The notes beneath the pieces are model-generated. The model had not been told where the DNA came from. It saw only the letters and a program-made list of their open reading frames with translations, and did not search any database. This document shows positions 2,441-27,478 of a DNA stretch of 64,000 nt, in pieces. The stretch covers positions 9,468 to 73,467 of the forward strand of contig QZKE01000079.1 of assembly GCA_003598015.1 (NCBI GenBank), read 5' to 3'. Within the stretch, counting starts at the first letter, position 1. Every line of letters starts with the position of its first letter. Origin of the DNA: Actinomycetota bacterium. GTDB taxonomy: Bacteria; Actinomycetota; Geothermincolia; Geothermincolales; RBG-13-55-18. Made by a program: the position numbers and the translations under genes.

Positions 2441-2467
2441 AGAGCGGAAGACGGAAAGGAGGTAGAG

Positions 2468-4510
2468 ATGTCCGAGGAGCTAGTGACACAGTTTAAAGAT
2501 ACGTATTACGACTCTCCGGCCGGGAAGATAGCCATAGTCACCATGGACAACGGCGAGGATTACCGCAAGCCCAACAGCTTCGGCCTGGGCGGCATGGCCA
2601 GCCTGAACGAATGCCTCGATCGCGTCGTGGCGGAGCCAGGCGTCAAGGCCTTGATCCTCACCGGCAAGCCCTTCATCTTCGGGGCGGGCGCCGATCTCAC
2701 CCAGGTGCCCCTCATCAAGACCAGGGAACAAGCCCTGGAGATCGCGCAGACGGGCCACGCGGCCTTCAAGCGCATCATCGACCTGCCCTTTCTCACCGTA
2801 GCCGCCGTCAACGGCGTCGCACTGGGAGGCGGGCTCGAAATCGCGCTGGTGTGCGATTACCGCACCATCTCCCCCGGTGCCGCGGCCGTGGGCTTCCCCG
2901 AGTGCTTCCTGGGGCTCATCCCGGGATGGGGCGGGACCACCCTGCTGCCCAAGCTCATCGGCCCCGAGAAGGCGCTGGAGATCATCGTCCACAACGCCCT
3001 CAACAACAACCGCATGTTAGGCGGCAAGAAGGCGTTCGAGATGGGCATCGCCGACCGCTTCTTCGAGCCCGTCGATTTCCTGGATAAGACCATCGCGTTC
3101 ACGGTGGGACTGCTGCAGGGCACGGAGAAGGTGGAGAGGCCGGAGCCCGACTGGTCCAACCTGGACGCCCTGGTCGCACAGGCCCGGGCCGTGGCCGACT
3201 CCAAGGTGCACGGCAACTCCAAGGCACCCTACATGGCCATTGACAACATCGTCGCGGCCAGGGATAACACGGTGGATGAGGGATTCGCCCTGGAGGACGA
3301 GGCCCTGGCCACCCTCATCCCCTCGCCCCCCATGCAGGCGGGCGCCTACGCCTTCGACCTCACCCAGCGACGGGCCAAGAAACCCGTGGGTGTGCCGGAG
3401 GGCGCTCCCCTGCCGGTGAAGAAGGTGGGCATCCTGGGCGCGGGACTCATGGGCAGCCAGCTGGCGGTGCTCTTCCTGCGCCGCATGAAGGTCCCCGTGG
3501 TCATCAAGGACATCAAGCAGGAGTTCGTGGACAAGGGCATGGGCTATATCGAGCAGGAGATCAACCGCCAGGCCGAGAAGGGCCGTATCGACAAGGGCCA
3601 GGTGCCATGGCTGATGGGCCTGGTGGAGCCGACGCTGGACTACGCCGACATGGCCGAATGCGACTTCATCATCGAGGCCGTGCTGGAGGAAATGCCCATC
3701 AAGAAGAAGGTCTACGGCGAGCTCGAGGAATTCGTCTCGGAGACCGCCATCCTGGCCACCAATACCTCCTCCCTGTCGGTGACGGAGATGGCCTCCGACC
3801 TCAAACACCCCGAGCGCGTGGTGGGCTTCCACTTCTTCAACCCGGTGGCGGCCATGCCTCTGCTGGAGATCATCAAGGCGGAGAAGACCAACGACCCTAC
3901 CCTCATCACCGCCTTCGATATCGGCAAGAAGCTGGGGAAGCGCTGCGTGCTGTGCAAAGACGCACCCGCTTTCATCGTCAACCGCCTGCTGCTGCGCTCC
4001 ACGGCGGAGACGTTGAAACTGGTGGACGAGGGCAACGACTTCAAGGACGTGGACGAGGCGCTGTGGGCGCTGGGTACACCCATGCCCCCCTTCACCCTCC
4101 TGGCCCTGGTGGGACCGGCCATCGCCCTGCATACCGGTGAGACCCTGGTCGAGGCTTTCCCGGACCGCTATACCATCAGCGATAACTTCAAGGAACTGGT
4201 GGCGCGCAAGAAACCCGGTGTCTATGGACCCGACGGCGAAGTCGACCCCGAGGTGCGCGAGCTCTGGAAACAGGACGATCCGCCCAAGAAGATCAGCGCC
4301 CAGGAGATGCGCGACCGCGTCAGCGAAGCCCTGGCCGACGAGTGCTGGCGGATGCTCGACGACGGAGTGGTGGGCGCCCCGGAGGAGATCGACATCTGCA
4401 TGATCTTCGGCGCTGGCTACCCCTTCTACATGGGCGGCTTGACCCGCTACCTCGACTACGCCGGATACTCCGAGAAAATCAAGGGGAAGAAGTTCCACCC
4501 CGACGCCTGA
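2468..4510 (+). CDS. fadB: bifunctional enoyl-CoA hydratase / 3-hydroxyacyl-CoA dehydrogenase
   Basis: 680 aa. N-terminal crotonase fold (AAVNGVALGGGLEIALVCDYR) and a central NAD Rossmann motif (VGILGAGLMGSQLA). It starts 27 nt after the thiolase stop, so the two are probably co-transcribed. Confidence 0.9.
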   Translation: MSEELVTQFKDTYYDSPAGKIAIVTMDNGEDYRKPNSFGLGGMASLNECLDRVVAEPGVKALILTGKPFIFGAGADLTQVPLIKTREQALEIAQTGHAAFKRIIDLPFLTVAAVNGVALGGGLEIALVCDYRTISPGAAAVGFPECFLGLIPGWGGTTLLPKLIGPEKALEIIVHNALNNNRMLGGKKAFEMGIADRFFEPVDFLDKTIAFTVGLLQGTEKVERPEPDWSNLDALVAQARAVADSKVHGNSKAPYMAIDNIVAARDNTVDEGFALEDEALATLIPSPPMQAGAYAFDLTQRRAKKPVGVPEGAPLPVKKVGILGAGLMGSQLAVLFLRRMKVPVVIKDIKQEFVDKGMGYIEQEINRQAEKGRIDKGQVPWLMGLVEPTLDYADMAECDFIIEAVLEEMPIKKKVYGELEEFVSETAILATNTSSLSVTEMASDLKHPERVVGFHFFNPVAAMPLLEIIKAEKTNDPTLITAFDIGKKLGKRCVLCKDAPAFIVNRLLLRSTAETLKLVDEGNDFKDVDEALWALGTPMPPFTLLALVGPAIALHTGETLVEAFPDRYTISDNFKELVARKKPGVYGPDGEVDPEVRELWKQDDPPKKISAQEMRDRVSEALADECWRMLDDGVVGAPEEIDICMIFGAGYPFYMGGLTRYLDYAGYSEKIKGKKFHPDA

Positions 4511-11372: not shown

Positions 11373-12437
11373 ATGCGCGTTGCGATGTTGGCTCCGGTAT
11401 GGATCCCCATACCTCCCGAGGGCTACGGGGGTATCGAGAGGGTTATCAAGTTGCTGGTGGACGAGCTGGTGCGTATGGGGGAGGACGTAACCCTCTTTGC
11501 CGCGGGACCCTGCCGGACACGGGCGTGGCAGCGGATTATGCTGGATGAGGCACCCACCTACCACATGGGCGAGACCCTCTACGACGCGCTCCACGTGGGG
11601 CGGGCTTACCGGGAGATCTACACCGGCGGCTTCGACATCGTACACGACCATTCCGGCTTCCTCGGACCTGCATTCGCGGGCATGCTCCCGGTGCCCGTTG
11701 TGCATACTCTTCACGGTCCCTTCACCCCGGAGATCCGCCGTTTCTACGAAGCCTTCAAGGACGACTGCTATTACGTGGCCATAAGCCGCAGGCAGCTTGA
11801 AAGCTGCCCGGGGCTGAACTACCTCGGCATGGTCCCCAACGCGGTGGACGTGGACGAGCACCGCTACCTGGGTGAGAAGGGCGATTACCTGATCTGTGTA
11901 GGCCGCATCTGCGAGGCGAAAGGGACCGAGCAGGCCGTGCTCCTGGCACGGGAGACGGGAAATCGCCTGCTCCTGGCCGGCAAGATCGATCCCGGCCGGG
12001 ACCGCGATTACTTCGAGTCGCGCGTCGTGCCCCACCTCGACGGCAAGATGATTCTATACCTCGGGGAGGTGTCACAGGAGGAGAAGGTGCGCCTGGTCTC
12101 GCGGGCTCGTGCTCTCCTCTTCACGGTGCAGTGGGAGGAGCCCTTCGGGCTGGTGATGGCGGAAGCCCTGGCCTGCGGTACTCCGGTTCTCGCCACGCGC
12201 TGGGGCGCCGTGCCCGAGGTGGTCGAGCATGGCGTGACCGGTTTTCTGGCCGATTCCCCCCGGGAGCTTGCATCGTATGTGGAACGCATCGACGAATTGG
12301 ATCCCCTGGATTGCAGGCGGGCCGCCGAGGAACACTTCAGCCCCGGGGCGATGGCGGCCAGCTATCTCGATATCTATCACTATGCCTCGGACATGCACCC
12401 CACCAGGCTGTGGCCTCATCGTGCCCACACTGCCTGA
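11373..12437 (+). CDS. GT4-family glycosyltransferase
   Basis: 354 aa. The C-terminal EX7E region reads EPFGLVMAEALACGTPVLATRWGAVPEVVEHGVTGFL. An AGGAGG RBS is present. Confidence 0.8.
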   Translation: MRVAMLAPVWIPIPPEGYGGIERVIKLLVDELVRMGEDVTLFAAGPCRTRAWQRIMLDEAPTYHMGETLYDALHVGRAYREIYTGGFDIVHDHSGFLGPAFAGMLPVPVVHTLHGPFTPEIRRFYEAFKDDCYYVAISRRQLESCPGLNYLGMVPNAVDVDEHRYLGEKGDYLICVGRICEAKGTEQAVLLARETGNRLLLAGKIDPGRDRDYFESRVVPHLDGKMILYLGEVSQEEKVRLVSRARALLFTVQWEEPFGLVMAEALACGTPVLATRWGAVPEVVEHGVTGFLADSPRELASYVERIDELDPLDCRRAAEEHFSPGAMAASYLDIYHYASDMHPTRLWPHRAHTA

Positions 12438-12490
12438 CGGGATCAATCCTCGTGGAAGACGTTCAGACGGTATGCGGTCCGATCGACCAC

Positions 12491-13600
12491 TCAGCGGGAG
12501 AACCGCCGGCGCAGGGCACGCCGGTCGCGGCGGGTGATGCGGCTCCTGTCCGCGGCCAGGGAAGCGGCATCCAGGTCCCCCACCATGCCTGAGAGATCGC
12601 GCCGCTGCTTGAGTTCCCTCTCCAGTATCTCCTGCATGCGGTAGCGGTAACGGATATGGGGCGTGATCCTCTCTCCGGCGCTCTCCGCCAGAGATTCCGC
12701 GGCCACCCGCCCACTCTGCAGCGCCAGCCGGATGCCGAAACCCCAGGGGTCCAGAAGACCGGCCGCCTCTCCTACCAGCAGGGCGCAGCCGGCACCGAGG
12801 TTGAAATGCCCTCCCACCGCCATGCGGTTGGATGCCGATATCTGGCGCATGGCCTCGCCGCCCAACCGCAATCCCACCCGCCCTTCCAGGAAAGCGGTGA
12901 GGCCGGCGAGCTCGTCCCGCCAACCCCGTGCGGCATCGTGGTTCACCGACAGGCCTATGAGGTCACCCCTGATGAAGAAGCGGGCGATACCCATACCTTT
13001 TTGCATAAGGACGAGGCCCATCCACTCCGGGTCCCAGTCCAGCTCCCCCCCGCAGAGAACGAGCATGGTCCGTTCGAGGTGCGGGACGGCATACAGTCGG
13101 TGGAACTCGGGTCGGAGGAGACGCAATGCCATGGATTCCGCCCCATCCGCGGCAATGAGGTAGGTCGCCTCCACCATTTCCTCCCGGCCATCTCTGGCGA
13201 TCCTCGCCGTCACGTGGAAACGCTCCACCTGGAAATCCTTTACCTCGCAGCCGTCCATAACCTCCGCCCCACAGCCCGTGGCGAGATGGGCATCGAGGCG
13301 GGAACGCAGCACCGCAAGGCCGGTTCCGGGGAAAGGCAGCTCGTATGTGCCTCCACCCTCGCAGAGCAGGCGAGCGCCCCGGACGGTCCGCGGGCTTGCC
13401 AGGCAGTCCGTGGGTATGGGCCCGAAGGCTTCCTCTACGAGGCTGGCGGCTTGCGGGGAGACGAAGCCGCCGCAGGTCTTCTCGCGCGGCAACCTCTCCC
13501 GTTCGAGCAGCACCACCGTGAACCCCGCGTCACTGAGAGACCTGGCGGCCATACATCCGCCCGGACCCGCTCCCATGACCACGGCATCGTAATATCTCAA
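12491..13600 (-). CDS. geranylgeranyl-reductase-family FAD-dependent oxidoreductase
   Basis: YDAVVMGAGPGGCMAA dinucleotide fold, EKTCGG motif, and C-terminal GEAAGLLDP. I prefer the TTG at 13600 (GAGGGG 7 nt upstream); the listed GTG at 13627 is the alternative. Confidence 0.75.
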   Translation of the reverse strand: MRYYDAVVMGAGPGGCMAARSLSDAGFTVVLLERERLPREKTCGGFVSPQAASLVEEAFGPIPTDCLASPRTVRGARLLCEGGGTYELPFPGTGLAVLRSRLDAHLATGCGAEVMDGCEVKDFQVERFHVTARIARDGREEMVEATYLIAADGAESMALRLLRPEFHRLYAVPHLERTMLVLCGGELDWDPEWMGLVLMQKGMGIARFFIRGDLIGLSVNHDAARGWRDELAGLTAFLEGRVGLRLGGEAMRQISASNRMAVGGHFNLGAGCALLVGEAAGLLDPWGFGIRLALQSGRVAAESLAESAGERITPHIRYRYRMQEILERELKQRRDLSGMVGDLDAASLAADRSRITRRDRRALRRRFSR

Positions 13601-13714
13601 TACACTACCCCTCAGGTCTCCACGCACTGCTCACTATTATGCCCTCGGGCCGCGCGCTCGTCATCAGGGATGCCCGGCGCCGCAGGGTTGCGAAAAACGA
13701 GTATACTAGTGCAA

Positions 13715-14587
13715 ATGATCGTCGATATACACACCCACGTGGGAGATTGTATCAACGGCGGAGGGCTGTCGGAACCCTACGACCGGCCTCCCCGCCTCCT
13801 GTCCGACCTGTTCGAGACATCGGGATTCCGGCTCATGGGTGGGAGGCGACTCTTTCCCCGCTTCTCCCGCTACGTGGAGATCATCCACAACCAGGAACGC
13901 AACAACCTGGGTACCCCCGAGAACATTCTCGCGTACATGAACCGCTTCGGGATAGACATCTCCGTACTCCAGCCCATCGAGCCGGTCCGCTCCACCGAGG
14001 ACAACCTGGCCCTGGTCGGCGAGCGCCTGCGGACCTTCGCCTCGGTGCATCCCCTGCATGAGGGATGGGAATCGCGGCTCGAGCGCTACATGGAAACGGG
14101 TTGCCTGGGGCTGAAGATCCATCCCATTATCCAGAGGCTGTCTCCCGGAGAGCCCGCGGTCTTCGACCTGCTCGAGGCATACGCGCCGCATGGCCGGCCC
14201 GTGCTGCTGCACGCCGGGGAGAGCTCCTATTTCCTGAACGAGCGCTCCCCCTCACGCTTCGGCCGTATAGGCGACTGGGAAGCGGTCCTCTCCTCCTTCC
14301 CGCAGGTAAAGTTCATCGTCGCCCACACAGCCATGGAGGGGTGGAAAAAGGCTATAACCTCAGGGGAGAGGCTGCCGAACCTTTATGTGGATACCAGCTT
14401 CCAATCCGTCTCACACGTGCGCGAAGCCCTGCGCAGCCTGGGGAAGGAGCGGGTGCTCTTCGCCTCCGATTGGCCGTTCTCGCTGCAGAAGGCACCATTG
14501 CGGGTGATCGCTTCCGCCGCCGGGGGTGATGCCGGTTTGCGCCGCGCCCTTCTCTGTGACAATGCCCACGCGGTCCTGGGACTGTAG
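13715..14587 (+). CDS. amidohydrolase-2 (TIM-barrel metal-dependent hydrolase) family protein
   Basis: Only the last 290 codons of the listed 643-aa ORF are credible. They read MIVDIHTHVG (HxH metal site), ...LHAGE..., ...VAHTAMEG... and ...FASDWPF. The upstream 353 codons are antisense to the reductase gene. Confidence 0.7.
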   Translation: MIVDIHTHVGDCINGGGLSEPYDRPPRLLSDLFETSGFRLMGGRRLFPRFSRYVEIIHNQERNNLGTPENILAYMNRFGIDISVLQPIEPVRSTEDNLALVGERLRTFASVHPLHEGWESRLERYMETGCLGLKIHPIIQRLSPGEPAVFDLLEAYAPHGRPVLLHAGESSYFLNERSPSRFGRIGDWEAVLSSFPQVKFIVAHTAMEGWKKAITSGERLPNLYVDTSFQSVSHVREALRSLGKERVLFASDWPFSLQKAPLRVIASAAGGDAGLRRALLCDNAHAVLGL

Positions 14588-14818
14588 GGATGGATGGGGT
14601 CATCCCCGGAAGAAAAGGCATTCGCGATGACGTCTCGGGCCGGCGCGTTTCACGTCATTGCGAGGAGCGCAGCGACGCGGCAATCTCCTCCGGACGCCGA
14701 TTATGGTCCGAACGAGATCGCTTCGCTGGCGGTCGCGATGACGTTGAACATGCGTTCGCGATGACTTCGATAATGTAAAATGTCCCATGTCCGGGGCTGA
14801 CCCCATCCTATACATCCC
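14587..14818. mobile_element. MITE-like 232-bp element carrying GTCATYGCGA-type repeats
   Basis: Terminal inverted repeats: GGGATGGATGGGGTCA (14587-14602) versus TGACCCCATCC-tatac-ATCCC (14798-14818). Inside are GTCATTGCGAGGAGCGCAGCGACGCGGCAATCTC (14654-14687) and three reverse-oriented GTCATCGCGA copies. The element fills the gap between two gene ends and has no coding capacity. Confidence 0.45.
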
Positions 14819-15714: not shown

Positions 15715-16818
15715 TCACTGGGTCAGGGGGCGGTTGACGTCTATTTCGACGATCGCGCCGGAAGCAGAGTTGAAGGCGAATACGATCCCCTTGGCATTGT
15801 ACTCCATGATGGTCAACTCCTCGCCCTGATGCATCAGGCTGGTCTGCCTCTCGGGCGATCCGAACTCTTTCATCGCATCGGCGGAGGGCGAACCTATGCC
15901 CACGCCCATGGGCGTCTTTCCCTCGTAGGGATGGCGCACGCTTATGGACACCACGATATCGAAATCCCCCAGGGAATCGTTCTTGTCCATATCCTCCATG
16001 TAGACGTTCATCTTCCAGGTGCCGTATCCACCGGTGTAGGTGGCGAATACCAGGCCTTCCGTAGTGGAGCCGGTGCTGTCCGGCCCACCATATTTTTCCT
16101 TGACGGTGCGGAACTCATCGCCTACGTTTATTCCCGCCGCCGTCTGCCCGGGCACGATGGGTGCGGACGAGTATACTCCGAAGAGGCCGCCCTGGGCGTC
16201 GTCCGTACCCTCCTCCTCCTCAACGGGCCGCAAGCCGCCGTAGGCGGTTACGAGCACGGTTATAGCGCCGTCCGGCGGCGATATGAGGAACTCGACTCCC
16301 TTCTGGTCGTAGTAATAGAGCTGGATATTTTCACCTTCCGGTCCCTGTGTCTCGGAAATACTCTCGCAGGGTCCGAACTCACCCTCCACGTCTCCCGGCG
16401 AGCTCCCGATCCCCACCCCCCCGGAAGTCGTACCGTAGTAGGGTGTGGAGACCTCGATGGCCCCCACTTCGTCTTCGGCATCGAGGTAGCCGTTGCCGTT
16501 ATCATAGAGGGTGACCACCATGCGCCAGGAGGCGGGATCGTCTATCCTGCCCCCCTCACGGGTTCTGGCGTAGTATGCATACAGGTAACCGCCGTCCTTG
16601 AGTTTCTGTTCGGGTTCACCGTGTATGTCGAGCACCGCCTGGAAGGGGTCGCCGATGTTCACGTCGGCCATGGAATATCCGGGGACGATAGGGTCGTGGT
16701 CCCACGCCGACAGATCCTCCCCGCCGCCGCTCCCACATGCCGCGATGCCGGTGGCGATCACCGCCAGCGCCGCCAGGAACAAGCAGGCCGAGGCCGGTTT
16801 CGAAACATCTTTTTTCAT
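15715..16818 (-). CDS. hypothetical lipoprotein with internal domain repeats
   Basis: MKKDVSKPASACLFLAALAVIATGIAACGSGG gives a signal peptide plus lipobox. A module repeats (PIVPGYSMADVNIGDPF.., APIVPGQTAAGINVGDEF.., MGVGIGSP..). Confidence 0.7.
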   Translation of the reverse strand: MKKDVSKPASACLFLAALAVIATGIAACGSGGGEDLSAWDHDPIVPGYSMADVNIGDPFQAVLDIHGEPEQKLKDGGYLYAYYARTREGGRIDDPASWRMVVTLYDNGNGYLDAEDEVGAIEVSTPYYGTTSGGVGIGSSPGDVEGEFGPCESISETQGPEGENIQLYYYDQKGVEFLISPPDGAITVLVTAYGGLRPVEEEEGTDDAQGGLFGVYSSAPIVPGQTAAGINVGDEFRTVKEKYGGPDSTGSTTEGLVFATYTGGYGTWKMNVYMEDMDKNDSLGDFDIVVSISVRHPYEGKTPMGVGIGSPSADAMKEFGSPERQTSLMHQGEELTIMEYNAKGIVFAFNSASGAIVEIDVNRPLTQ

Positions 16819-16824
16819 TGCGGT

Positions 16825-17397
16825 CTATGCTCCAAGTTGTTCTGCCGCGCGTTCGTCCGCGCCGCCACGCCGCAAGTAGGAAACGGGGATATCCAAAGCG
16901 CTCTCGATGCTCTTGACGATGAGAAAGGCCTTGATGCGGTTGTCGGAGGGAGCGCCGGTCATGCCGGAGCGAAAGAGCTTCAGACGTTTGCCGTTCTTCT
17001 GTATCAGGTTTACGCGTACGTAATAGGAGAGGTCGCGTTTCGAGCTCCTGTCCCCTTCCGGCGCGGGAACGTGCGGCGACTCGACCACCTCCAGCCCTTG
17101 CAGTTTCTCCCGGCTCAGGCGCCGCCGCCTGGGTATGAAATAGTGGTAATGCTCGACTGTGAGTTCATGCGCGGCGGGGTCGACGATGACGTAGGTAGGG
17201 GAGGAGAAGATGGTGAACATGCTGTAGAAGAGTAATACAACGCAGCAGATACCCAGGACGATGCGCATAGTCCCCAGGGTGGCCAGCACCGCGCAGGTTA
17301 CGGAGACGTAGAAGAGCAACGCGTGGGTAACCTCCCAGGCACCTCCCCGGATCTCGAACTCCATGCGTTGGCTGCCGCTCGCGTCCGCCTCTGTCAT
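16825..17397 (-). CDS. hypothetical membrane protein
   Basis: 190 aa with two hydrophobic helices near the N-terminus and a basic soluble C-terminal part. Its stop lies 7 nt before the start of the lipoprotein gene. Confidence 0.55.
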   Translation of the reverse strand: MTEADASGSQRMEFEIRGGAWEVTHALLFYVSVTCAVLATLGTMRIVLGICCVVLLFYSMFTIFSSPTYVIVDPAAHELTVEHYHYFIPRRRRLSREKLQGLEVVESPHVPAPEGDRSSKRDLSYYVRVNLIQKNGKRLKLFRSGMTGAPSDNRIKAFLIVKSIESALDIPVSYLRRGGADERAAEQLGA

Positions 17398-17500
17398 CTT
17401 TCCTCCCGGTCCGTGATGTGTATCTCAACAGCTCTACAGCAGCAATTATAACCCAAGTGGGAACGGCTTCCTGCAAGCCGGGATGCGCATGCCGCCCGGA

Positions 17501-17755
17501 TCAGGCGTCGGTGACCTTGTACACGACATCGTGTTCGCGGGCATGCCCCTCCACCTTGATGCCGATCACATCGCCGGGACCAGCCTTCTGCACCTGGTCA
17601 TGTTCGATTTGCATGGACGATACATCCTGGGTCCAGTCCGAGGTATGTCCCTTGACATGTATGGTGTCACCTACGTTCAACTCGTCCTCGAGTTCGATGG
17701 CGGCGACATTTATCTTCGCGAAAAAGTGAGTGATCCTGCCGACCTGCTTCTCCAT
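17501..17755 (-). CDS. small EF-Tu-domain-2-like (translation elongation factor-like) protein
   Basis: 84 aa. GDTIHVKGHTSDWTQDVSSMQIEHDQVQKAGPGDVIGIKV resembles the beta-barrel domain 2 of translational GTPases. Confidence 0.5.
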   Translation of the reverse strand: MEKQVGRITHFFAKINVAAIELEDELNVGDTIHVKGHTSDWTQDVSSMQIEHDQVQKAGPGDVIGIKVEGHAREHDVVYKVTDA

Positions 17756-17959
17756 GGTTCACCTCCTTCCCGACCCCAATAGCATCGACGCCCCCGGAAC
17801 CCGGCCAGTTCCCAATCGAAGAGCCGTCTGCGGGCGCCCTATGCCATTTTTCGTGGGAATGCGCCTCGAATCCTGCGACGCGGTCCAGCGAGCGTTACTG
17901 CCGTGCCATACGCAGAGGGGCGTTATATAATATTACGGGGCGCGTAGCGAGGAGGCGGT

Positions 17960-18253
17960 ATGAGCGGTAACGATGACTCCAGGGAAGCGGTACTGCGCAG
18001 GCTGCACCGCGTGGAAGGGCAGGTGCGCGGGATAATCCGCATGGTCGAGGAGGGGAAGGACTGCGAGGATGTCCTCACCCAGGTCGCCGCCGCACGTTCC
18101 GCCATGAACCGCATCGGAATACACATCATCACCCACCGCATGAAGGAATGCTTCGAGGATAATCCACCAGATTCGCCGGAGGACGCCATTGGGGAAGCCA
18201 TCGACGTTTTCCTCCGTTTCAGCTCGAGCATCGGCCCGGTAACCCCGGAATAG
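17960..18253 (+). CDS. CsoR/RcnR/FrmR-family (DUF156) metal- or thiol-sensing transcriptional repressor
   Basis: 97 aa. LRRLHRVEGQVRGIIRMVEEGKDCEDVLTQVAAARSAMNRIGIHIITHRMKECF shows the typical helix pattern with sensing Cys (KDC) and His/Cys (THRMKEC). A GGAGG RBS is present. Confidence 0.85.
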   Translation: MSGNDDSREAVLRRLHRVEGQVRGIIRMVEEGKDCEDVLTQVAAARSAMNRIGIHIITHRMKECFEDNPPDSPEDAIGEAIDVFLRFSSSIGPVTPE

Positions 18254-18481
18254 GGGATCAACCGTTCAATCGACACATGGGGCCGGGTGCGCACGCAAGG
18301 AATATAACCTCGATCCAACTTCACCCTGCCGGGCCGCTTCATCCTTATAAGTCCGCATCCTGGCCTGTTCCCCTGTTCTCCTTATCATCCAGCCTCGTCT
18401 ATTCCGATCGCTTGCGGGCGGCATTCCTGGCATAGGCGGTCAACATGCCGGTAGGCGCCGTATGATTTAGATCGTATCGTT

Positions 18482-18499
18482 TATACCCCTATGGGTATA
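18482..18499. promoter_or_regulatory. candidate CsoR-family operator
   Basis: TATACCC-CTAT-GGGTATA is a perfect 7+7 inverted repeat about 45 nt upstream of the ATG at 18546. It overlaps a TATAAA -10-like hexamer. Confidence 0.6.
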
Positions 18500-18545
18500 A
18501 ACTCTCCGCATGGATTAACGCTGGTTTCTTTCCTGGAGGTAGGCT

Positions 18546-21542
18546 ATGAGTAAAAGGGATTTACTGCCCGGCATCCTTTCCGAACTGGAGGAACGCTTCG
18601 GGGAGCGTTTTAATGCAGACCCCGTAGAGAGGTACATCTACTCCCGCGACATGGGCGAGTTCCCATCCGTCGTGGGCAAGATCGTGGGAGGTCTCGCCCA
18701 GGCTGTCCTGCAAGTGGAAAACGTGGATGAACTTGCCTGGATCATCGGCTTCGCCCATCGCAATAGAATCCCCCTCACCCCCCGCGCCGCTGCCACCAGC
18801 GGATACGGAGGCGCTATTCCGGTGCTGGGGGGTATCGTAGTCGACCTCACCCGCATGAACCGCATTGTGGATATCGACGTGGAGGGGCGCTCGGTCACGG
18901 TGCAGCCGGGAGTCGTGTGGTGGAACCTGGAGAAGGAACTGCGGGCGCGCGGACTGGCCCTGCGCACCTATCCTTCCAGCGCGCCCTCTTCCACTGTGGG
19001 TGGTTGGGTAGCCGAAGGCGGTTCGGGCATCGGGGCCTATGCCTATGGAGAGATAGCCGACAACGTCCAGGAGCTGAAGCTGGTGGGACCGCAAGGCGAG
19101 AGGACGATAAGCGGCGATGATATGGGGCTTTACGTTGGTTCGGAGGGAACGCTCGGCTTCATCTCCGAGGTACGCCTGGCCGTGCGCGAGGCGGCTCCCG
19201 AGCGGCCGCTGTTGTTCTCCTTCGCGGGCGCGGAAGCGGTTCAGCGTTTCATCCATGCGCTGAAGGGAAAGGACCTCCCCCTGTTCCACCTCCAGGTCAT
19301 AACCCCGCAACTGGCCGCCCTTAAGAACCAGGTAGCGGCGGAGGCGTATCTCCCCGAAGGTTCCTACCTGGTGCTGGCCGTAATGGAGGGCGACGAAGCC
19401 GGACCCCATGACGAGTTGATGAAACTCGCTGCAAGCGCCATGGGCAAGGAACTGGATGAGGAAGGCGCCGCTCACGAGTGGGATGAGAGGGTTTACCCCC
19501 TGCGCATCAAGAAAGCAGGCCCCTCGGTCATCCCGGCGGAGGCCGAGGTGCCGCTGTCGAAGGTGGGAGCCCTGCTGGCGGATACCGCGAAGCGCCTTCC
19601 CGAGCTCGCCATGGAAGTGATCGTCGGCAGGAATGGGAAAGCGATTTTCCTGGGATTCATCCCCTGTGACTCGCGCAGCGTGGACTTCACCGTCGACTTC
19701 ACCGCCTCACTGGAATTCCTGCGCCTGGCGGAGAAGTACGGCGGTGCTCCCTACGGCATCGGGCTGTATTTCGTGGACAAGGCGGACAAGAGGCTGGGCA
19801 TGGCCAGGAGGAAGAGGCTGCAAGAGGCGAAACGGGAGGCGGACCCCGCATGCCTCCTCAACCCGGGGAAGATGGTGGAGACGTGCGCCGAAACCCCGCG
19901 CCTCAAGACCCTGCGCGGCATGATGGCCATGGCCAAACTGTCGCTGCCCCTGGCCATACCCACACGCAAACTGGCGCCCCACCTGCGCTTGATGCGCCGC
20001 CGGCTGCCGGAGAAGGTGGAGGAGGCTGCTTTCACCTGCGCGCAGTGCGGCTACTGCAAGCAGGACTGCACCCTCTATAGAGGCCGGGGCTGGGAGAGCG
20101 CGTCGCCGCGCGGCAAGATGCAGTACCTGCGCGGCTACGCCAAGGGGGAGGTGCCCCTCACCCAGGATATGTCGGACACCTTCCTGCTCTGCAGCACCTG
20201 CAAGAAGTGCGACCTCACCTGCCAGACCGACCTGCCCATCGAGTCCGTGTGGGAGGAGATGCGCGGCGAGCTCATAGCCGAGGGCAAGTTCAAGACCTTT
20301 CCTCCCTTCGAGATGATGGGCGCCTCCTACGACATGGAGAACAACATCTGGGCGGGATTCTCCGCGGACCGCGACGCGTGGCTGCCCGGGGACATCAAGG
20401 TGCGGGAGAGCGGCCCCGTGGGCTACTGGGCCGGCTGTACCGCCTCCTACGTTGAGCAGGACATCGCCCGCGGGGCGGCGCGCATCCTCAAGGAAGGAGG
20501 CGTTGACTTCGTCTACCTGGGGAAGGACGAAACATGCTGCGGGGTCCCCTTCCTCATGAGCGGAAAATGGGACGTCTTCGAGGAGGCCGTGCGGCGCAAC
20601 GTCAAAGCCCTCAAGGAACGGGGAGTGAAGAAGCTGTACACGTCGTGCCCAGGCTGCTGGGTTACGCTGGGCCAGCACTACAAGGAATGGGCTGAGAAGC
20701 TGGGGCTGGAATGGGACATGGAGGTGGTGCATATCACCGAGCTGGCGGCTGAGCTGGTGAGAGACGGCAGACTCCAGTTCAAGAACGAGATCCCCCTTAA
20801 GGTCACCTGGCACGATCCCTGCCATATCGGGCGTCACGGCAGGATATACGAGGAACCCCGTGAAGTACTGGAGGCCATACCGGGTTTGGAACTGATGGAG
20901 ATGGAACACAACCGCGACGAGGGGCTGTGCTGCGGCAGCGTGCTCACCCTCATCGGCGAGACCCGCCCCACCTCCGGGCGCATCGCCCACGGACGCCTGC
21001 AGGAGGCGCGGGATATCGGGGCCGAGGCCATCGTCACCACCTGCCCGTGCTGCGAGTTCCAGCTGCGGGTATGGGACGCGGCCGAGGGCGACGGCGTGAA
21101 GGTCCTCGATTTCGCGGCGGTGGTGGCGGAAGCCCTGGGCGAGAGGCTGGAGAACCCCGATCCCAAGGTGCAGGACTCCTGGGCGGTCTTCGACACCATG
21201 ATCCAGCTGATGACCCCCCAGGGCATGGCCGATTTCATGTGGGAGTTCCTGGACTCCATCTCGCCGCTCCTGGGCAAGGCCATGCGCCTGGGCAAGAGGC
21301 TGCCGGAGTCGCTGAAGAAGGGGATGTTCGCCGTGACCGACCGCCTCATGCCCATGATGATGCCCAAGATGCTTCCCGTCATGATGCCCTGGATGCTTCC
21401 GCGCATGATGCCCCTGATGGAGGCGAAGATGCCCACCATGAGCGATTCCATGCGCGAACTCATGCCGGACATCCTGCCGCGGGTCATGGACAGGGTCATG
21501 CCCTACATGATGCCGCGCATCGTGCGCTGCATGATATCCTAG
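18546..21542 (+). CDS. FAD-linked oxidase fused to a 2x[4Fe-4S] + 2xCCG (GlpC/HdrD-like) module, with a Met-rich C-terminal extension
   Basis: 998 aa. N-terminal FAD_binding_4 region (PLTPRAAATSGYGGAIP). Two ferredoxin motifs (CAQCGYCKQDC, CSTCKKCDLTC). CCG-type motifs (CCGVPF, CPGCW, HDPCHIGR, CCGS, CPCC). The last ~120 residues contain 26 Met by my count. Confidence 0.85.
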   Translation: MSKRDLLPGILSELEERFGERFNADPVERYIYSRDMGEFPSVVGKIVGGLAQAVLQVENVDELAWIIGFAHRNRIPLTPRAAATSGYGGAIPVLGGIVVDLTRMNRIVDIDVEGRSVTVQPGVVWWNLEKELRARGLALRTYPSSAPSSTVGGWVAEGGSGIGAYAYGEIADNVQELKLVGPQGERTISGDDMGLYVGSEGTLGFISEVRLAVREAAPERPLLFSFAGAEAVQRFIHALKGKDLPLFHLQVITPQLAALKNQVAAEAYLPEGSYLVLAVMEGDEAGPHDELMKLAASAMGKELDEEGAAHEWDERVYPLRIKKAGPSVIPAEAEVPLSKVGALLADTAKRLPELAMEVIVGRNGKAIFLGFIPCDSRSVDFTVDFTASLEFLRLAEKYGGAPYGIGLYFVDKADKRLGMARRKRLQEAKREADPACLLNPGKMVETCAETPRLKTLRGMMAMAKLSLPLAIPTRKLAPHLRLMRRRLPEKVEEAAFTCAQCGYCKQDCTLYRGRGWESASPRGKMQYLRGYAKGEVPLTQDMSDTFLLCSTCKKCDLTCQTDLPIESVWEEMRGELIAEGKFKTFPPFEMMGASYDMENNIWAGFSADRDAWLPGDIKVRESGPVGYWAGCTASYVEQDIARGAARILKEGGVDFVYLGKDETCCGVPFLMSGKWDVFEEAVRRNVKALKERGVKKLYTSCPGCWVTLGQHYKEWAEKLGLEWDMEVVHITELAAELVRDGRLQFKNEIPLKVTWHDPCHIGRHGRIYEEPREVLEAIPGLELMEMEHNRDEGLCCGSVLTLIGETRPTSGRIAHGRLQEARDIGAEAIVTTCPCCEFQLRVWDAAEGDGVKVLDFAAVVAEALGERLENPDPKVQDSWAVFDTMIQLMTPQGMADFMWEFLDSISPLLGKAMRLGKRLPESLKKGMFAVTDRLMPMMMPKMLPVMMPWMLPRMMPLMEAKMPTMSDSMRELMPDILPRVMDRVMPYMMPRIVRCMIS

Positions 21543-21803: not shown

Positions 21804-22100
21804 TCAGATATAAACGACCTCGGAGAGAATGCGCTCACCGATCCTCGGTTTCAAAGCCTTTTTCATTACCAGATCCACGTCCACATCGAGTAGTTCGCTC
21901 AGCCTGCGCTTCAGATTTACAAACCGCATCAGGCTTATCGGCTGTGAGAACTCCACCAGTATGTCCAGGTCGCTTCCCGCCGCCTGGTCTTCGCGCACGT
22001 AGGAACCGAACAAGCCGATATTGCTCACGGAGTACTCCTCCTCGAGTTCCCCTCTGTGCTCGTTCAGCTTCTTCTTGAATCTTTCCAGATCAGTCATCAC
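21804..22100 (-). CDS. mntA: MNT-type nucleotidyltransferase antitoxin
   Basis: 98 aa. The GSYVRED...GSDLDILV minimal nucleotidyltransferase motif is present. It overlaps the HEPN gene by 11 nt. Confidence 0.85.
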   Translation of the reverse strand: MMTDLERFKKKLNEHRGELEEEYSVSNIGLFGSYVREDQAAGSDLDILVEFSQPISLMRFVNLKRRLSELLDVDVDLVMKKALKPRIGERILSEVVYI

Positions 22101-22449
22101 TCAGCTCCTCGATGGTCCGCTTAATCTCCTCTTCGGCTTCCGGTAGATCGTCCTTGACGGTCAACCATACCGCCTCCAGATCCACCTCGATGTAGTCGTG
22201 GATCAACACATTCCTCATCCCGATCATGTCGCTCCAGGGTATCTTGGGATACCTCTTAACAATTTCTTCTGGTATATGGCGCGCCGCCTCCCCGGCCACC
22301 TCGAGAGCCCGGATAACCGCATAGGATGTACGTTCGTCCTGCTCGAACTCCCGCCTATCCATATTGCCCAGGAAGGCCCGAGCCTTTGCCATGGCATCCA
22401 GGATATCCTGCAGATAATCGAGTATCAGTCGTTCTTCAGCCATCTCCAC
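22090..22449 (-). CDS. hepT: HEPN (DUF86) toxin
   Basis: 119 aa. The Rx4H motif is in MRNVLIHDY, within a typical DUF86 helical pattern. Confidence 0.85.
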   Translation of the reverse strand: MEMAEERLILDYLQDILDAMAKARAFLGNMDRREFEQDERTSYAVIRALEVAGEAARHIPEEIVKRYPKIPWSDMIGMRNVLIHDYIEVDLEAVWLTVKDDLPEAEEEIKRTIEELSDD

Positions 22450-24420: not shown

Positions 24421-24705
24421 TCATTTCAAGCTGCTTCTCCTCAATATTTCGTAGATCTCCTCTCGCGGTCCGGTGAGTACCACGTAGACGACCTTATCCT
24501 CCGGCTTGAGTTGATAGATGATGCGGTGCTCTCCTCCTGGGGTCGTGACGGGCAGGCTGTATAGGCCTTCGTATCCTTTGAGGGGCTTTCCCGCACGAGG
24601 ACGATCCGCGAGCTTCGCAAAGGCCTTGTCGTAACAGTCCGCCAGTTCGCGGCCGTATCGCGCCAATGATTTAGCTACGCGCTGCGAGCCGTGCACCTCC
24701 CACAT
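24421..24705 (-). CDS. RelE/ParE-family toxin
   Basis: 94 aa. ...GEHRIIYQLKPEDKVVYVVLTGPREEIY is the typical RelE/ParE C-terminal pattern. It starts 4 nt after the antitoxin stop. Confidence 0.8.
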   Translation of the reverse strand: MWEVHGSQRVAKSLARYGRELADCYDKAFAKLADRPRAGKPLKGYEGLYSLPVTTPGGEHRIIYQLKPEDKVVYVVLTGPREEIYEILRRSSLK

Positions 24706-24708
24706 TGT

Positions 24709-24948
24709 CTATTTCCCGGAGCTTTTAGGGTAAAGGCGAACGGACTTCTTGCTGCGCCAATCCTCCTCCGCCTCACGCACGATATCCTCTAGGGACAGCT
24801 TGCGCAGGACGATTTCCCCTTCCCTCGCCTCTACCGTCATGCGGTCTCCTTCCTCGAACCCCAGCTGGGCCCGAATCCTCTTGGGTATTACCACCTGCCC
24901 CTTGCTGGACATCCTGGTGAGCTCTATCTGGCGGGCCATCTTTATCAC
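24709..24948 (-). CDS. AbrB/MazE/SpoVT-family antitoxin
   Basis: 79 aa. The SKGQVVIPKRIRAQLGFEEGDRMTVEAREGEIVLRK swapped-hairpin motif is present. Confidence 0.85.
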   Translation of the reverse strand: MIKMARQIELTRMSSKGQVVIPKRIRAQLGFEEGDRMTVEAREGEIVLRKLSLEDIVREAEEDWRSKKSVRLYPKSSGK

Positions 24949-25538: not shown

Positions 25539-25760
25539 TTGGCAAAAGTCGACGATACCCAGGAAAACCTGGAGATCTGCGTGAAGTTCTGCGGGCCTTG
25601 CCCCTCTAAGCCGCAGGTTTTCGGGGAAGCGCTCTTCTGCGCGAGGGGTAAGAGCAGTAAAGAGGTGGAGGAAAAGGGCTGCAACTGCCCCGGCTGCGAC
25701 GTATTCGCGAAGTACGGCCTGGCTGATGGCTATTTCTGCAAGAACGGAGCCGCCGAGTAA
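25539..25760 (+). CDS. DUF2769-like Cys-rich small protein (copy 1, divergent)
   Basis: 73 aa: MAKVDDTQENLEICVKFCGPCPSKP...LFCARGKSS...KGCNCPGCDVFAKYGLADGYFCKNGAAE. It has the same architecture as the two modules downstream. Confidence 0.7.
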   Translation: MAKVDDTQENLEICVKFCGPCPSKPQVFGEALFCARGKSSKEVEEKGCNCPGCDVFAKYGLADGYFCKNGAAE

Positions 25761-25879: not shown

Positions 25880-27199
25880 ATGGAAGATCTCGGGCGAGAG
25901 AGAAACTGGTTACTGTTCCCGGGCTTCGAGATAGAGGTTGTGGCCACGGGCTTCAGCCTTCCCGTGAACATAGCCTTCGTCCCCGATGCGGGAAGCGACC
26001 CCGGAGCGCCCCTCTTCTATGTAACGGAGCTCTACGGCCAGGTCAAGGTTGTCCTGAACAATGGTGAAGTTGGTACCTATGCCACCGGCCTCCTCAACTT
26101 CGAGCCGGACTATAAATTCCCCGGCACTGGGGAATCGGGACTCACGGGGTTGTGCGTGGAGCCGGAGACCGGCGACCTCTTCCTCGCCATGCTCTATGAG
26201 GAAAACGGCCAGCCCAAGTCCAGGGTAGTGCGGACGAAAAGCGACTCGGGGCTGGAGATGACCTTGCAGGAGACCGTCCTGGACGGCGTGCCCTCCATCA
26301 GGGCCGCGCACCAGATACAGGCGGTGAGTATCGGCTATGACGGCAAGCTCTACGTGAACTTTGGGGACGGCATGGTCGATCCCAATGTAGCGCAGGATGA
26401 CAATGACCTGCGCGGCAAGATCCTGCGCCTGAACCCAGACGGCTCCGTTCCCTCCGACAACCCGAACCCGCCCAGCCCCATCTTTGCCAAGGGATTGAGA
26501 AACCCTTTCGGCGCGACCTGGAGAAAGAGCAACCACTCCCTGTACATCTCGGACAACGGACCCGCCTACGATGACAGGATCGCGAGGATAGACGCCGGGA
26601 AGAACTACGGTTGGCCCATGTCCATGCGCACCAACTCCATCTTCTGGTGGGAGTTCACCCAGGCGCCTACCGCCCTGGCCTTCATGCAGGACGGTCAGTT
26701 CCCCCATACCTATCACGACGAGCTCTTCGTCGCCCTTTTCGGCGCGGCCAATGCCAAGGGCAGGTCCCCAAAAGGAAAAAAGATCGTGAAGCTCCACCTC
26801 GGCGAGGACGACAAGGGCGTGAGCTCCGAGGACAGCTTCGTGGTGTACGTGGGAGAGGGGCCGGCAAGCCCTTGCGGACTTGCCTTCGGCCCTGGCGGCC
26901 TTTACTTCACCGACCTCTTTGGCGAGTTGGACGACCCTGCCAGGGCGCCGGTGGGCAGTGTTTACCGGGTGAGGGCGCGGGGCCGTGTCCCCGACACGCC
27001 GGAGAACTTCGCCCAATGCATCTGCAGGAACTGCCCCACCCATGACGAGTGCATGAAGGAAAGGATGCAGGGCCTGTTCTGCGCCCGTGGCAAGTCGGAC
27101 TGCGATTTCGAGCGCAAGGGTTGCATATGCGGCGAGTGCCCGCTGGCGACAAACTACCGCCTGGTGGACTACTACTACTGCGATACCGGGGAAGCTTGA
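25880..27199 (+). CDS. PQQ-dependent sugar (glucose/sorbosone) dehydrogenase-like beta-propeller fused to a C-terminal DUF2769-like module
   Basis: 439 aa with no signal peptide. Propeller motifs include GKILRLNPDGSVPSDNP, KGLRNPFG and NGPAYDDRI. The C-terminal 70 aa (26987-27196) read VPDTPENFAQCICRNCPTHDECMKERMQGLFCARGKSDCDFERKGCICGECPLATNYRLVDYYYCDTGEA. Confidence 0.7.
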   Translation: MEDLGRERNWLLFPGFEIEVVATGFSLPVNIAFVPDAGSDPGAPLFYVTELYGQVKVVLNNGEVGTYATGLLNFEPDYKFPGTGESGLTGLCVEPETGDLFLAMLYEENGQPKSRVVRTKSDSGLEMTLQETVLDGVPSIRAAHQIQAVSIGYDGKLYVNFGDGMVDPNVAQDDNDLRGKILRLNPDGSVPSDNPNPPSPIFAKGLRNPFGATWRKSNHSLYISDNGPAYDDRIARIDAGKNYGWPMSMRTNSIFWWEFTQAPTALAFMQDGQFPHTYHDELFVALFGAANAKGRSPKGKKIVKLHLGEDDKGVSSEDSFVVYVGEGPASPCGLAFGPGGLYFTDLFGELDDPARAPVGSVYRVRARGRVPDTPENFAQCICRNCPTHDECMKERMQGLFCARGKSDCDFERKGCICGECPLATNYRLVDYYYCDTGEA

Positions 27200-27256: not shown

Positions 27257-27478
27257 ATGAGAGTTCCGGACACGAAGGAGAACCTGGATAGATGCCTCTG
27301 CAGGGAGTGCCCGTCCTACAACGCATGTATGAAAGAAGGGATGCAGGGTTTGTTCTGCGCGCGGGGCAAGACCAACTGCGACTTCGAACGGCAGGGGTGC
27401 TTCTGCGGCAGGTGCCCGGTCTCGACCGAGTACGCTCTCAACAACTTCTACTTCTGCAATACGGGCGCAGCGGAATAG
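27257..27478 (+). CDS. DUF2769-like Cys-rich small protein (copy 3)
   Basis: 73 aa: MRVPDTKENLDRCLCRECPSYNACMKEGMQGLFCARGKTNCDFERQGCFCGRCPVSTEYALNNFYFCNTGAAE. An RBS (GGAGGAGAG) is present. Confidence 0.75.
   Translation: MRVPDTKENLDRCLCRECPSYNACMKEGMQGLFCARGKTNCDFERQGCFCGRCPVSTEYALNNFYFCNTGAAE

Follow-up and report, generated by a model that had tools for sequence, protein, structure and literature searches.

A probable thiol-responsive CsoR-family repressor with a conserved predicted operator at the promoter of a flavin/iron-sulfur/CCG oxidoreductase in the Candidatus Solincola lineage

We analyzed a 64,000-nucleotide stretch of DNA (the window) from an Actinomycetota bacterium (GenBank assembly GCA_003598015.1, contig QZKE01000079.1, positions 9,468 to 73,467 of the forward strand), which has a G+C content of ~60% and whose nearest relatives are Candidatus Solincola metagenome-assembled genomes (MAGs; Actinomycetota, Geothermincolia). 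In the window, a gene encoding a small CsoR-family repressor (csoR) is followed by a palindromic box and by the gene of a large oxidoreductase with flavin, iron-sulfur (Fe-S) and CCG modules. We hold with good confidence that this repressor-operator-enzyme unit is real and conserved, binding of the box by the repressor being predicted from sequence comparison. The best reading, which we consider reasonably likely, is that the repressor is a thiol/persulfide-responsive member of the CsoR family with a new target, where we infer the binding, the effector and the enzyme chemistry. This reading is supported because the sensor fingerprint, the spacing of the box and the comparative context resemble the two-cysteine, persulfide-type branch of the family. 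The unit consists of the following elements.

17960..18253, plus strand: CsoR-family repressor gene (csoR), 97 aa (PF02583 match; fingerprint x-C35-R60-C64)
18479..18502, no strand: predicted CsoR-type operator GTTTATACCC-CTAT-GGGTATAAAC with perfect 10-nt arms (sequence scan, conservation)
18546..21542, plus strand: oxidoreductase gene, 998 aa, monocistronic (Pfam domains; AlphaFold2 model)

The original prediction, made from the sequence of this stretch, had described a perfect inverted repeat, TATACCC-CTAT-GGGTATA, at 18482-18499 and about 45 nt before the next ATG. The repeat is present at that position but is longer, with 10-nt arms spanning 18479-18502, and its 3' end lies 43 nt before the enzyme ATG (18546). 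Its core, ATACCC-N4-GGGTAT at 18483-18498, corresponds to TAC-N8-GTA, and the box is unique in the window even when two mismatches are allowed (0.12 expected). Conservation was evaluated in 80 loci from a GTDB species-genome scan with enzyme alignment, plus contig look-ups for repressor homologues, and the box scans of relatives covered ~10 kb around each match. Nine independent loci of the Solincola lineage (the window, L001, L002, L081, L084, L088, L090, L179 and L180) had an invariant core 41-66 nt 5' of the enzyme start; their enzymes share 56-89% identity with the window enzyme wherever the identity is known. The palindrome is therefore conserved in related genomes, and the comparison supports the regulatory pairing well. 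An alignment of seven promoters contained only two invariant islands, the box and a second palindrome described below, and no other box with one mismatch or fewer was found in the related loci scanned. Clade loci without the enzyme, L085 (usp after csoR) and L092 (an ABC transporter after csoR), have no box. In L081, csoR and the enzyme gene are convergent and the box is located at the far end, 41 nt before the enzyme ATG; in L001, an insertion of ~1.6 kb, composed of a minus-strand open reading frame (ORF) and repeats, separates csoR from the box. The box thus travels with the enzyme promoter rather than with csoR.

Two structural peculiarities of these loci were recorded as well. The L001 insertion (2180-3830) carries a lipoprotein-like ORF flanked by several ~60-nt repeat copies (...GAGCGAGGAAAAATTCAAGATACGACCCC...). 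In L084 (10087-13090), the enzyme gene is apparently fragmented, CCG and FAD_binding_4 being called apart with plus-strand ORFs between them, and the upstream box is kept.

The pairing of csoR with the enzyme is narrowly distributed. Among the 80 GTDB enzyme loci, a PF02583 gene within 4 kb of the enzyme was found in only three (L001, L002 and L026), so that family-wide csoR-enzyme synteny was rejected and the pairing is specific to the Solincola lineage. Conversely, the enzyme was near the CsoR-family gene in 0/80 unrelated CsoR loci. In the window, the genes 3' of the oxidoreductase are a minus-strand HepT/MNT pair followed by further minus-strand ORFs; the oxidoreductase gene is therefore monocistronic and, as originally proposed, the only gene that the operator could gate.

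We considered whether the palindrome might be the site of another regulator or a structural element, with the csoR-enzyme adjacency merely reflecting inherited gene order. In the lineage, csoR is anchored by a divergent three-gene block upstream, which is also found in L085, L088, L090, L092, L179 and L180, and genes other than the enzyme follow csoR in L085 and L092.

15715..17755, minus strand: divergent three-gene block with products of 367, 190 and 84 aa (kept upstream of csoR in relatives)

Except for a weak match of the 84-aa product to EF-Tu domain 2, the proteins of this block matched no Pfam family. Orthologous enzymes in L014, L018 and L039 have a box with no csoR within 4 kb, which likewise favors a site independent of the repressor. 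On the other hand, the box has the TAC..GTA arms and G/C tracts that define CsoR-family operators (PMC3902906, PMC8643695), and the predicted site places these repeats and tracts at the promoter of the putative target in all nine loci. In addition, the box and the clade csoR occur together in 9/9 enzyme-bearing loci, the box is absent where the enzyme is absent, and the repressor gene at 17960-18253 is the sole PF02583 gene in the window. A T-run is lacking, and the 292-nt spacer between csoR and the enzyme gene matches no RNA family and shows no excess structure (z = -0.01). We consider it very improbable that the palindrome is not the operator of this repressor. A function of the palindrome as csoR terminator was rejected on the same absence of a T-run and of a structure signal, and since the L081 box is not 3' of csoR.

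The repressor matched PF02583 (Trns_repr_metal) with 91.9 bits, against a cut-off of 22.8 (E=3.4e-26, 76/78 model positions), which upholds its identification as a 97-aa DUF156 repressor. Its conservation was counted in one alignment of 81 clade members (clusters) and 19 canonical relatives. The RLXR DNA-binding motif, defined in helix 1 for the CsoR family (PMC3902906), reads R14-L15-H16-R17, and R14, L15 and R17 are invariant in 81/81 clade members. The sensor had been described as having its His five residues before the Cys in the motif H-R-M-K-E-C, and H59 and C64 are indeed present. However, the His is not simply misplaced: in alignments to the solved chains 4m1p, 5fmn and 6ahx, Arg60, not His59, occupies the column that in G. 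thermodenitrificans CsoR and in InrS holds the Cu(I)-ligand His. In S. pneumoniae CstR, the structure-based alignment puts Asn55 in this column, the residue that stands in for the Cu(I)-coordinating His (Fakhoury et al., PMC8643695). Position 60 is R in 75, Q in 4 and S in 2 clade members and never His, whereas it is His in 19/19 canonical relatives. Cys35 is conserved in 81/81 and Cys64 in 79/81 clade members; His59 is kept in 62/81 (77%), the other 19/81 having R, N, Q, G or C at this position. The whole set of csoR, second palindrome, box and enzyme is retained in L179, where residue 59 is R, and in L180, where it is N, and His59 as a shifted, essential Cu ligand was rejected on this ground. 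The second-shell Tyr preceding Cys35, present in 16/19 canonical relatives, is also absent, position 34 being G or D in the clade. Since Arg60 sits at the Cu(I)-His column, His59 is replaceable and the Tyr is absent, the fingerprint is x-C-R-C. The alignment to characterized sensors suggested by the original prediction thus yields a two-cysteine type and corrects the earlier reading of the His.

In the published classification, x-C-H-C proteins are Cu(I) sensors and x-C-x-C proteins are candidate persulfide sensors (PMC8643695). With conserved Cys at positions X and Z and a non-liganding Arg at Y, the sensor most resembles the two-cysteine CstR-like type and not canonical Cu(I) CsoR, and the Arg at the His position would be a new sensor-site variant of the CsoR family. 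It resembles the CstR proteins of S. aureus, E. faecalis, S. pneumoniae and S. mitis (PMC8643695) in the PF02583 fold, in the two Cys without a His at Y and in the AT-flanked G/C-tract palindrome of the operator, and one CstR target, the CoA-persulfide reductase (CoAPR), is a persulfide-acting flavoenzyme. It differs in that Y is Arg here and Asn in S. pneumoniae CstR, that the core identity is only ~40%, and that the target is a single FAD/Fe-S/CCG enzyme with no adjoining rhodanese, SQR, persulfide dioxygenase (PDO) or TauE gene. The Cu(I) CsoRs of M. tuberculosis, B. subtilis, S. lividans and G. thermodenitrificans share the family, the RLXR motif and the operator type; unlike them, the repressor here has no His at Y, no second-shell Tyr and no copZA or other copA/copZ neighborhood, its box is one bp shorter and its own promoter has no operator. 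In the B. subtilis CsoR locus, repressor, operator and target lie in this order on one strand, in the same layout as here. The best partial NCBIfam match of the repressor was to RicR, a CsoR paralogue of M. tuberculosis (58.9 bits against a cut-off of 175), which, unlike the present protein, is a C-H-C copper sensor. The RicR regulon comprises genes other than exporters. The N-terminal His or Pro2 at W and the His at Y that characterize RcnR, InrS and FrmR were not found: position 2 is S, P, A or T and position 3 is variable in the 81 clade members, and the NCBIfam scores for FrmR (44.6 bits, cut-off 133) and RcnR (33.6 bits, cut-off 138) were low. The clade also has a conserved C-terminal tail, FLRFSSSIGPVxPE (aa 78-97; 18190-18250), which is found neither in the canonical CsoR relatives of the alignment nor in the CsoR, CstR, InrS and 6ahx chains. 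Two clade members (L092 and L093, 8001-8294; protein P0196) have lost Cys-Z and read RRMKELL and CRMKEYL at the motif; L092 is the locus with an ABC transporter after csoR and neither box nor enzyme.

The spacing of the box provides a criterion that is independent of the fingerprint. The Streptomyces CsoR operator consensus, ATATACCCCTNAGGGGTATAT (PMC3902906), and the S. mitis cst operator (PMC8643695) have five bases between ATACCC and GGGTAT (N5), whereas the box analyzed here has four (N4). We compared spacing with sensor type in 80 generic CsoR loci (L094-L173), which stand among the GTDB matches listed, in no particular order, and do not include the Solincola clade. Of 71 loci with C-H-C sensors, 53 had N5 boxes only, none had an N4 box and 18 had no box; of nine loci with non-His sensors (G, N, S or Y), seven had N4 boxes only and none had an N5 box. 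Among box-bearing loci the split was perfect (1/C(60,7), p ~3e-9). The N5 boxes (TACCC-N5-GGGTA) were located mostly just 5' of csoR, as expected for autoregulation. The commonest neighbors of the non-His loci were rhodanese (5), metallo-beta-lactamase (3), thioredoxin-like (3) and pyridine-nucleotide disulfide oxidoreductase (2) genes, a cst-like context of rhodanese, PDO-like and thioredoxin-like functions. The boxes of the Solincola clade are N4 in 9/9 loci, which places the clade with the thiol-type sensors by this sequence rule.

The promoter region contains further elements.

17903..17931, plus strand: csoR promoter-like site GTGCCA-17-TATAAT, without CsoR box (promoter scan)
18463..18474, no strand: CRP/FNR-like palindrome TGAT-TTAG-ATCG, TGATTTAGATCG (promoter alignment of seven loci)
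18496..18501, plus strand: TATAAA as candidate -10 hexamer within the right operator arm (read from the sequence)
18535..18539, plus strand: ribosome-binding site GGAGG of the enzyme gene (sequence)

A TATATAAT-type -10 element 5' of csoR is conserved in six related loci, and no ATACCC..GGGTAT box was found 5' of csoR in the window or in the relatives. Autoregulation of csoR was rejected for want of such a box; with its own conserved -10 and no box, csoR is probably not autoregulated. The second palindrome, which the original prediction had missed, has the clade consensus ATGAY-N4-RTCAT, equal to the CRP/FNR half-site pattern TGAT-N4-ATCA. It is located 8 nt 5' of the box in seven loci, L179 and L180 among them, and 19 nt 5' of it, one helical turn more, in L002 and L088. 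In the window the pattern is mildly enriched, with 11 matches at one mismatch or fewer against 4.2 expected, including a pair at 14738-14774. The hexamers equivalent to TATAAA in related loci are TATAAG, TATATT and TATACA. If TATAAA is taken as the -10, the CRP/FNR-like site is centered near -41, the class II activator position, and the palindrome is a candidate class II activator site.

The putative target is a multidomain oxidoreductase with the following modules.

18699..19874, plus strand: VAO/PCMH-type flavin module, FAD_binding_4 (aa 52-185) and FAD-oxidase_C (aa 222-443) (Pfam; LDHD alignment)
20034..21068, plus strand: HdrD/EtfD-like module, 2x[4Fe-4S] ferredoxin domain (aa 497-563) and two complete CCG domains (Pfam; conservation)
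21306..21536, plus strand: Met/Pro-rich C-terminal tail, aa 921-997 (conservation; AlphaFold2 model)

The Pfam matches, FAD_binding_4, FAD-oxidase_C, a 4Fe-4S dicluster domain (Fer4_17) and two CCG domains (123.7 bits), agree with the flavin/2x[4Fe-4S]/2xCCG architecture proposed originally. The AlphaFold2 model, built with 72 sequences, had a pLDDT of 90.3 and a pTM of 0.90. Structure comparison assigned the N-terminal half to the LDHD/AGPS/D2HGDH fold (TM 0.82 to LDHD), and the closest solved chain of the C-terminal half was M. smegmatis EtfD (9ojn). The earlier description of the flavoprotein as GlcD-like holds for this fold but not for function. The His/His/Glu triad of D-2-hydroxyacid dehydrogenases is absent (GHVGDGNFH of LDHD is GRNGKAIFL in the enzyme, and GEHGIG is APYGIG), and in the cap domain (aa 222-443; 19209-19874) no His is invariant at the triad region across 72 family members. 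No NCBIfam equivalog cut-off was reached, including those of GlcD and YdiJ, the latter matching the N-terminal 140 aa only; the best partial matches were TfrB, LdhH, GlcD and GlpC. Because the triad is replaced and no equivalog cut-off is reached, 'GlcD-like' is a statement about fold only, and an identity as GlcD, YdiJ or Dld-II was rejected. The missing triad also makes it unlikely that the family oxidizes 2-hydroxyacids, despite names such as FAD/FMN-containing dehydrogenase.

The C-terminal module is of the HdrD/EtfD/TfrB/GlpC type by sequence, with a 2x[4Fe-4S] motif followed by two CCG domains with the full set of cysteines. Cysteines 631, 664, 665, 701, 704, 759, 795, 796, 833, 835 and 836 are invariant, as are all Fe-S/CCG cluster cysteines in 72 sequences. 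E. coli YdiJ, Shewanella Dld-II, GlcDEF, M. smegmatis EtfD, TfrB and HdrD resemble the enzyme in their VAO-type FAD, 2x[4Fe-4S] and two CCG elements (~1000 aa, fused or split); unlike these, the enzyme lacks the His/His/Glu triad, scores below all equivalog cut-offs and has a Met/Pro-rich helical tail of its own. In this tail (MPMMMPKMLPVMMPWMLPRMMPLM...), every fourth position is a Pro; the tail is conserved in different phyla, from Geothermincolia to Methanoperedens, and modeled as two long helices (921-961 and 967-997, pLDDT ~90). It is family-wide, being found also in enzymes without the box, and its function could possibly be membrane association, partner binding or Cu(I) binding. Our preferred guess for the chemistry, which we offer tentatively, is that the enzyme acts on persulfide or disulfide substrates in an HdrD-like reaction.

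In other lineages the enzyme family is usually linked to a different type of repressor, a pairing overlooked by the original prediction. An ArsR-type gene is located directly 5' of the enzyme gene, on the same strand and at ~100-400 nt, in 26 GTDB loci, which include L006, L008, L009, L010, L033-L037, L046, L050, L059, L060, L068-L070, L075, L076 and L079. These ArsR proteins share a conserved Cys in the motif LHAxxCxxLADPKRL, and some of them have another in IxxAC(D/E)LV. It appears that the Solincola lineage swapped an ArsR-type partner for a CsoR-type one. The ArsR-type sensors sHdrR, SoxR, SqrR and BigR (PMC10451225, PMC12423496) belong to a different protein family from CsoR but are likewise small two-cysteine repressors, and sHdrR controls an Hdr-like (CCG) system; in other phyla it is a two-Cys ArsR that takes the place of csoR beside the enzyme. 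Hdr-like systems are controlled by the sulfane-sulfur sensors sHdrR and SoxR (PMC10451225, PMC12423496), and CstR controls the FAD-dependent CoAPR (PMC8643695). A second CsoR-like clade, with R or Q at position Y, is present in Ktedonobacterales. Its gene islands (L174, 1-7775; L177 and L178, 3460-7300) encode a PDO-rhodanese, a rhodanese, TauE, a two-Cys ArsR and DUF302, and the island ArsR scored 126 bits against a profile of the enzyme-linked ArsRs. In addition, the L174 island encodes OsmC and the C-terminal end of the enzyme, whose Met/Pro tail forms an ORF of its own (112 aa). In L026 (3393-9160) the order is ArsR, enzyme, box, a C-R-C CsoR-like gene and DUF302. Orthology of the repressor with the Ktedonobacterales C-R-C clade was not supported by identity, and we use that clade as an analogy only. 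The first Cys of the enzyme-linked ArsRs lies ~12 residues earlier than in BigR, without orthology being implied.

The genes 3' of the enzyme are heterogeneous among the family loci, with no conserved downstream partner, and some are thiol-redox genes (AhpC/redoxin, thioredoxin-like, OsmC, cysteine-desulfurase-like). Boxes occur at the enzyme promoters of three further orthologues, as an N5 box after TTGCAA/TTGCCA-17-TAAAAT in L014 (Thermincola, 3860-3935) and L018 (Phosphitispora, 3850-3930) and as two tandem N4 boxes in L039 (a Coriobacteriia MAG, 3700-3770). The absence of PF02583 genes within 4 kb implies that regulation there is in trans.

Several observations weigh against a persulfide-type sensor. 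Sulfide, persulfide or sulfite detoxification genes, the usual neighborhood of CstR, were not found: no rhodanese, SQR, PDO, CoAPR or TauE gene adjoins the unit in the window or in the clade loci. The repressor clade is 43% identical to the C-R-C Ktedonobacterales clade and 47% to canonical C-H-C CsoRs, and the Arg common to the two clades may be convergent. The spacing rule has exceptions, namely the N5 spacing of the S. mitis cst operator and of the box in L026. His59 is retained in most clade members, and the Met-rich tail of the enzyme could bind Cu(I). Copper P1B ATPases also adjoin the enzyme in three unrelated lineages: a canonical CopA (MxCxxC, CPC) is divergent from it in L018 (1440-3680, minus strand), a CopA-like ATPase precedes the ArsR-enzyme pair in L009 (a Chloroflexota MAG; 1283-3355, plus strand), and in L090 (a Solincola relative; 12003-14237, minus strand) the genes of a CopB-like ATPase (CPH, His-rich N-terminus) and of the enzyme are convergent. 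Finally, rubredoxin, rubrerythrin and superoxide dismutase (SOD) neighbors in some loci fit an oxidant signal equally well.

Some of these points raise the possibility of a sensor for Cu(I) or a further soft metal, for example Ag(I), in which a Cys35/Cys64' bis-thiolate is the binding site, aided in most members by His59, with the oxidoreductase as a copper-stress protein. The box is of the same general type as copper CsoR operators (PMC3902906), the N5 boxes of the Firmicute orthologues L014 and L018 come straight after a sigma-A promoter, and the copper ATPases stand beside the enzyme in 3 of ~85 loci, against ~0.5 expected by our own estimate. However, none of the three ATPases shares the CsoR box: the CopB promoter of L090 has none, and in L018 terminator-like hairpins stand between the enzyme and copA, which carries a palindrome different from the box. 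No clade member has the Cu(I) His or the second-shell Tyr at the corresponding positions, R59 and N59 variants retain the unit, N4 boxes accompany only non-His sensors in our sample, and the Met/Pro tail is found throughout the family, box-less members included. CstR is itself insensitive to Cu(I) in cells, which is ascribed to a tuned Cu(I) affinity and allosteric response (PMC8643695). The absence of copA or copZ that had been claimed for the locus held, in that the P-type ATPase motif DKTGT and the HMA motif MxCxxC were absent from all frames of the window. A nickel exporter, formaldehyde dehydrogenase or sulfurtransferase was not seen among the individually scanned genes or the top 25 of 73 families of a 50-ORF summary, which is not a protein-by-protein screen of the window for them. 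We judge a copper sensor unlikely here and an effector of the thiol/sulfur type the more probable one.

A broader role of the two cysteines, as a general redox or electrophile switch responding to H2O2, O2, disulfide stress, quinones or aldehydes, would make the enzyme one of oxidative stress or redox balancing. Rubredoxin and rubrerythrin genes lie a few kb from csoR in L081 and L084, while the surroundings of the csoR paralogue in L085 include SOD, a thioredoxin-reductase-like gene, Usp and rubrerythrin. In other phyla, AhpC/redoxin, thioredoxin-like and OsmC genes are found repeatedly 3' of the enzyme. The CstR thiols react in vitro also with H2O2 and tetrathionate (PMC8643695), and the FNR-like site suggests oxygen- or redox-linked control. 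Against such a switch, PDO, rhodanese and TauE genes provide the strongest comparative links, the Pro2 typical of FrmR is not conserved and the csoR-enzyme unit of the window contains no dedicated peroxide-detoxifying gene. We consider it quite unlikely.

For the favored thiol/persulfide-responsive repressor, the following mechanism is proposed. The repressor would be a tetramer of the two-cysteine class, transcribed from its own operator-less promoter. In its reduced form it would bind the ATACCC-N4-GGGTAT box, which overlaps the likely -10 of the oxidoreductase promoter, so that the bound repressor would block transcription of this single gene. Derepression would occur when Cys35 and Cys64' are covalently modified or cross-linked by an inducer that reacts with thiols, as in CstR, sulfane sulfur (persulfide or polysulfide) being the most likely candidate; trigonal Cu(I) coordination would not be the trigger. 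The CRP/FNR-like site near -41 would probably add positive control. The enzyme would then act within a stress response, exchanging electrons with a disulfide- or persulfide-type substrate or delivering them to quinone.

Beyond the unit, the region just 3' of the enzyme gene contains toxin-antitoxin pairs, namely MNT/HepT (21804-22449, minus strand) and a MazE-type antitoxin with a ParE-type toxin (24421-24948, minus strand). DUF2769 occurs three times within 2 kb (25539-25760, 25880-27199 at C-terminal aa 380-434, and 27257-27478), and the copy at 25880-27199 is fused to a glucose/sorbosone dehydrogenase beta-propeller. No Rfam family reached threshold anywhere in the window.

Known CsoR-family regulons center on metal exporters, formaldehyde dehydrogenase and sulfurtransferase/persulfide dioxygenase operons. 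The original prediction had placed the present unit outside them, and in keeping with this our literature search found no paper describing such a regulon; the regulated gene is a target that we have not found reported for the CsoR family. The N4/N5 rule, which held among the box-bearing loci of the 80-locus sample, may let annotators tell copper-type from thiol-type CsoR regulons from sequence. The unit also provides a first functional handle on a large, conserved, uncharacterized enzyme family that is wired across phyla to cysteine-based repressors, and this wiring points to sulfur/thiol stress chemistry in strict anaerobes, in which persulfide dioxygenases cannot operate because they depend on oxygen. 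We put forward as a speculative possibility that this ~1000-aa flavin/Fe-S/CCG family of anaerobes (Geothermincolia, Chloroflexota, Bacillota, Methanoperedens and others) is an unrecognized stress enzyme whose dedicated two-cysteine repressors belong to two families without relation to each other, ArsR-type in most lineages and, in Solincola, a new C-R-C branch of CsoR, and that an HdrD-like site reduces persulfide, polysulfide or mixed disulfides. If this is true, the family would be an oxygen-independent counterpart of the cst system for strict anaerobes.

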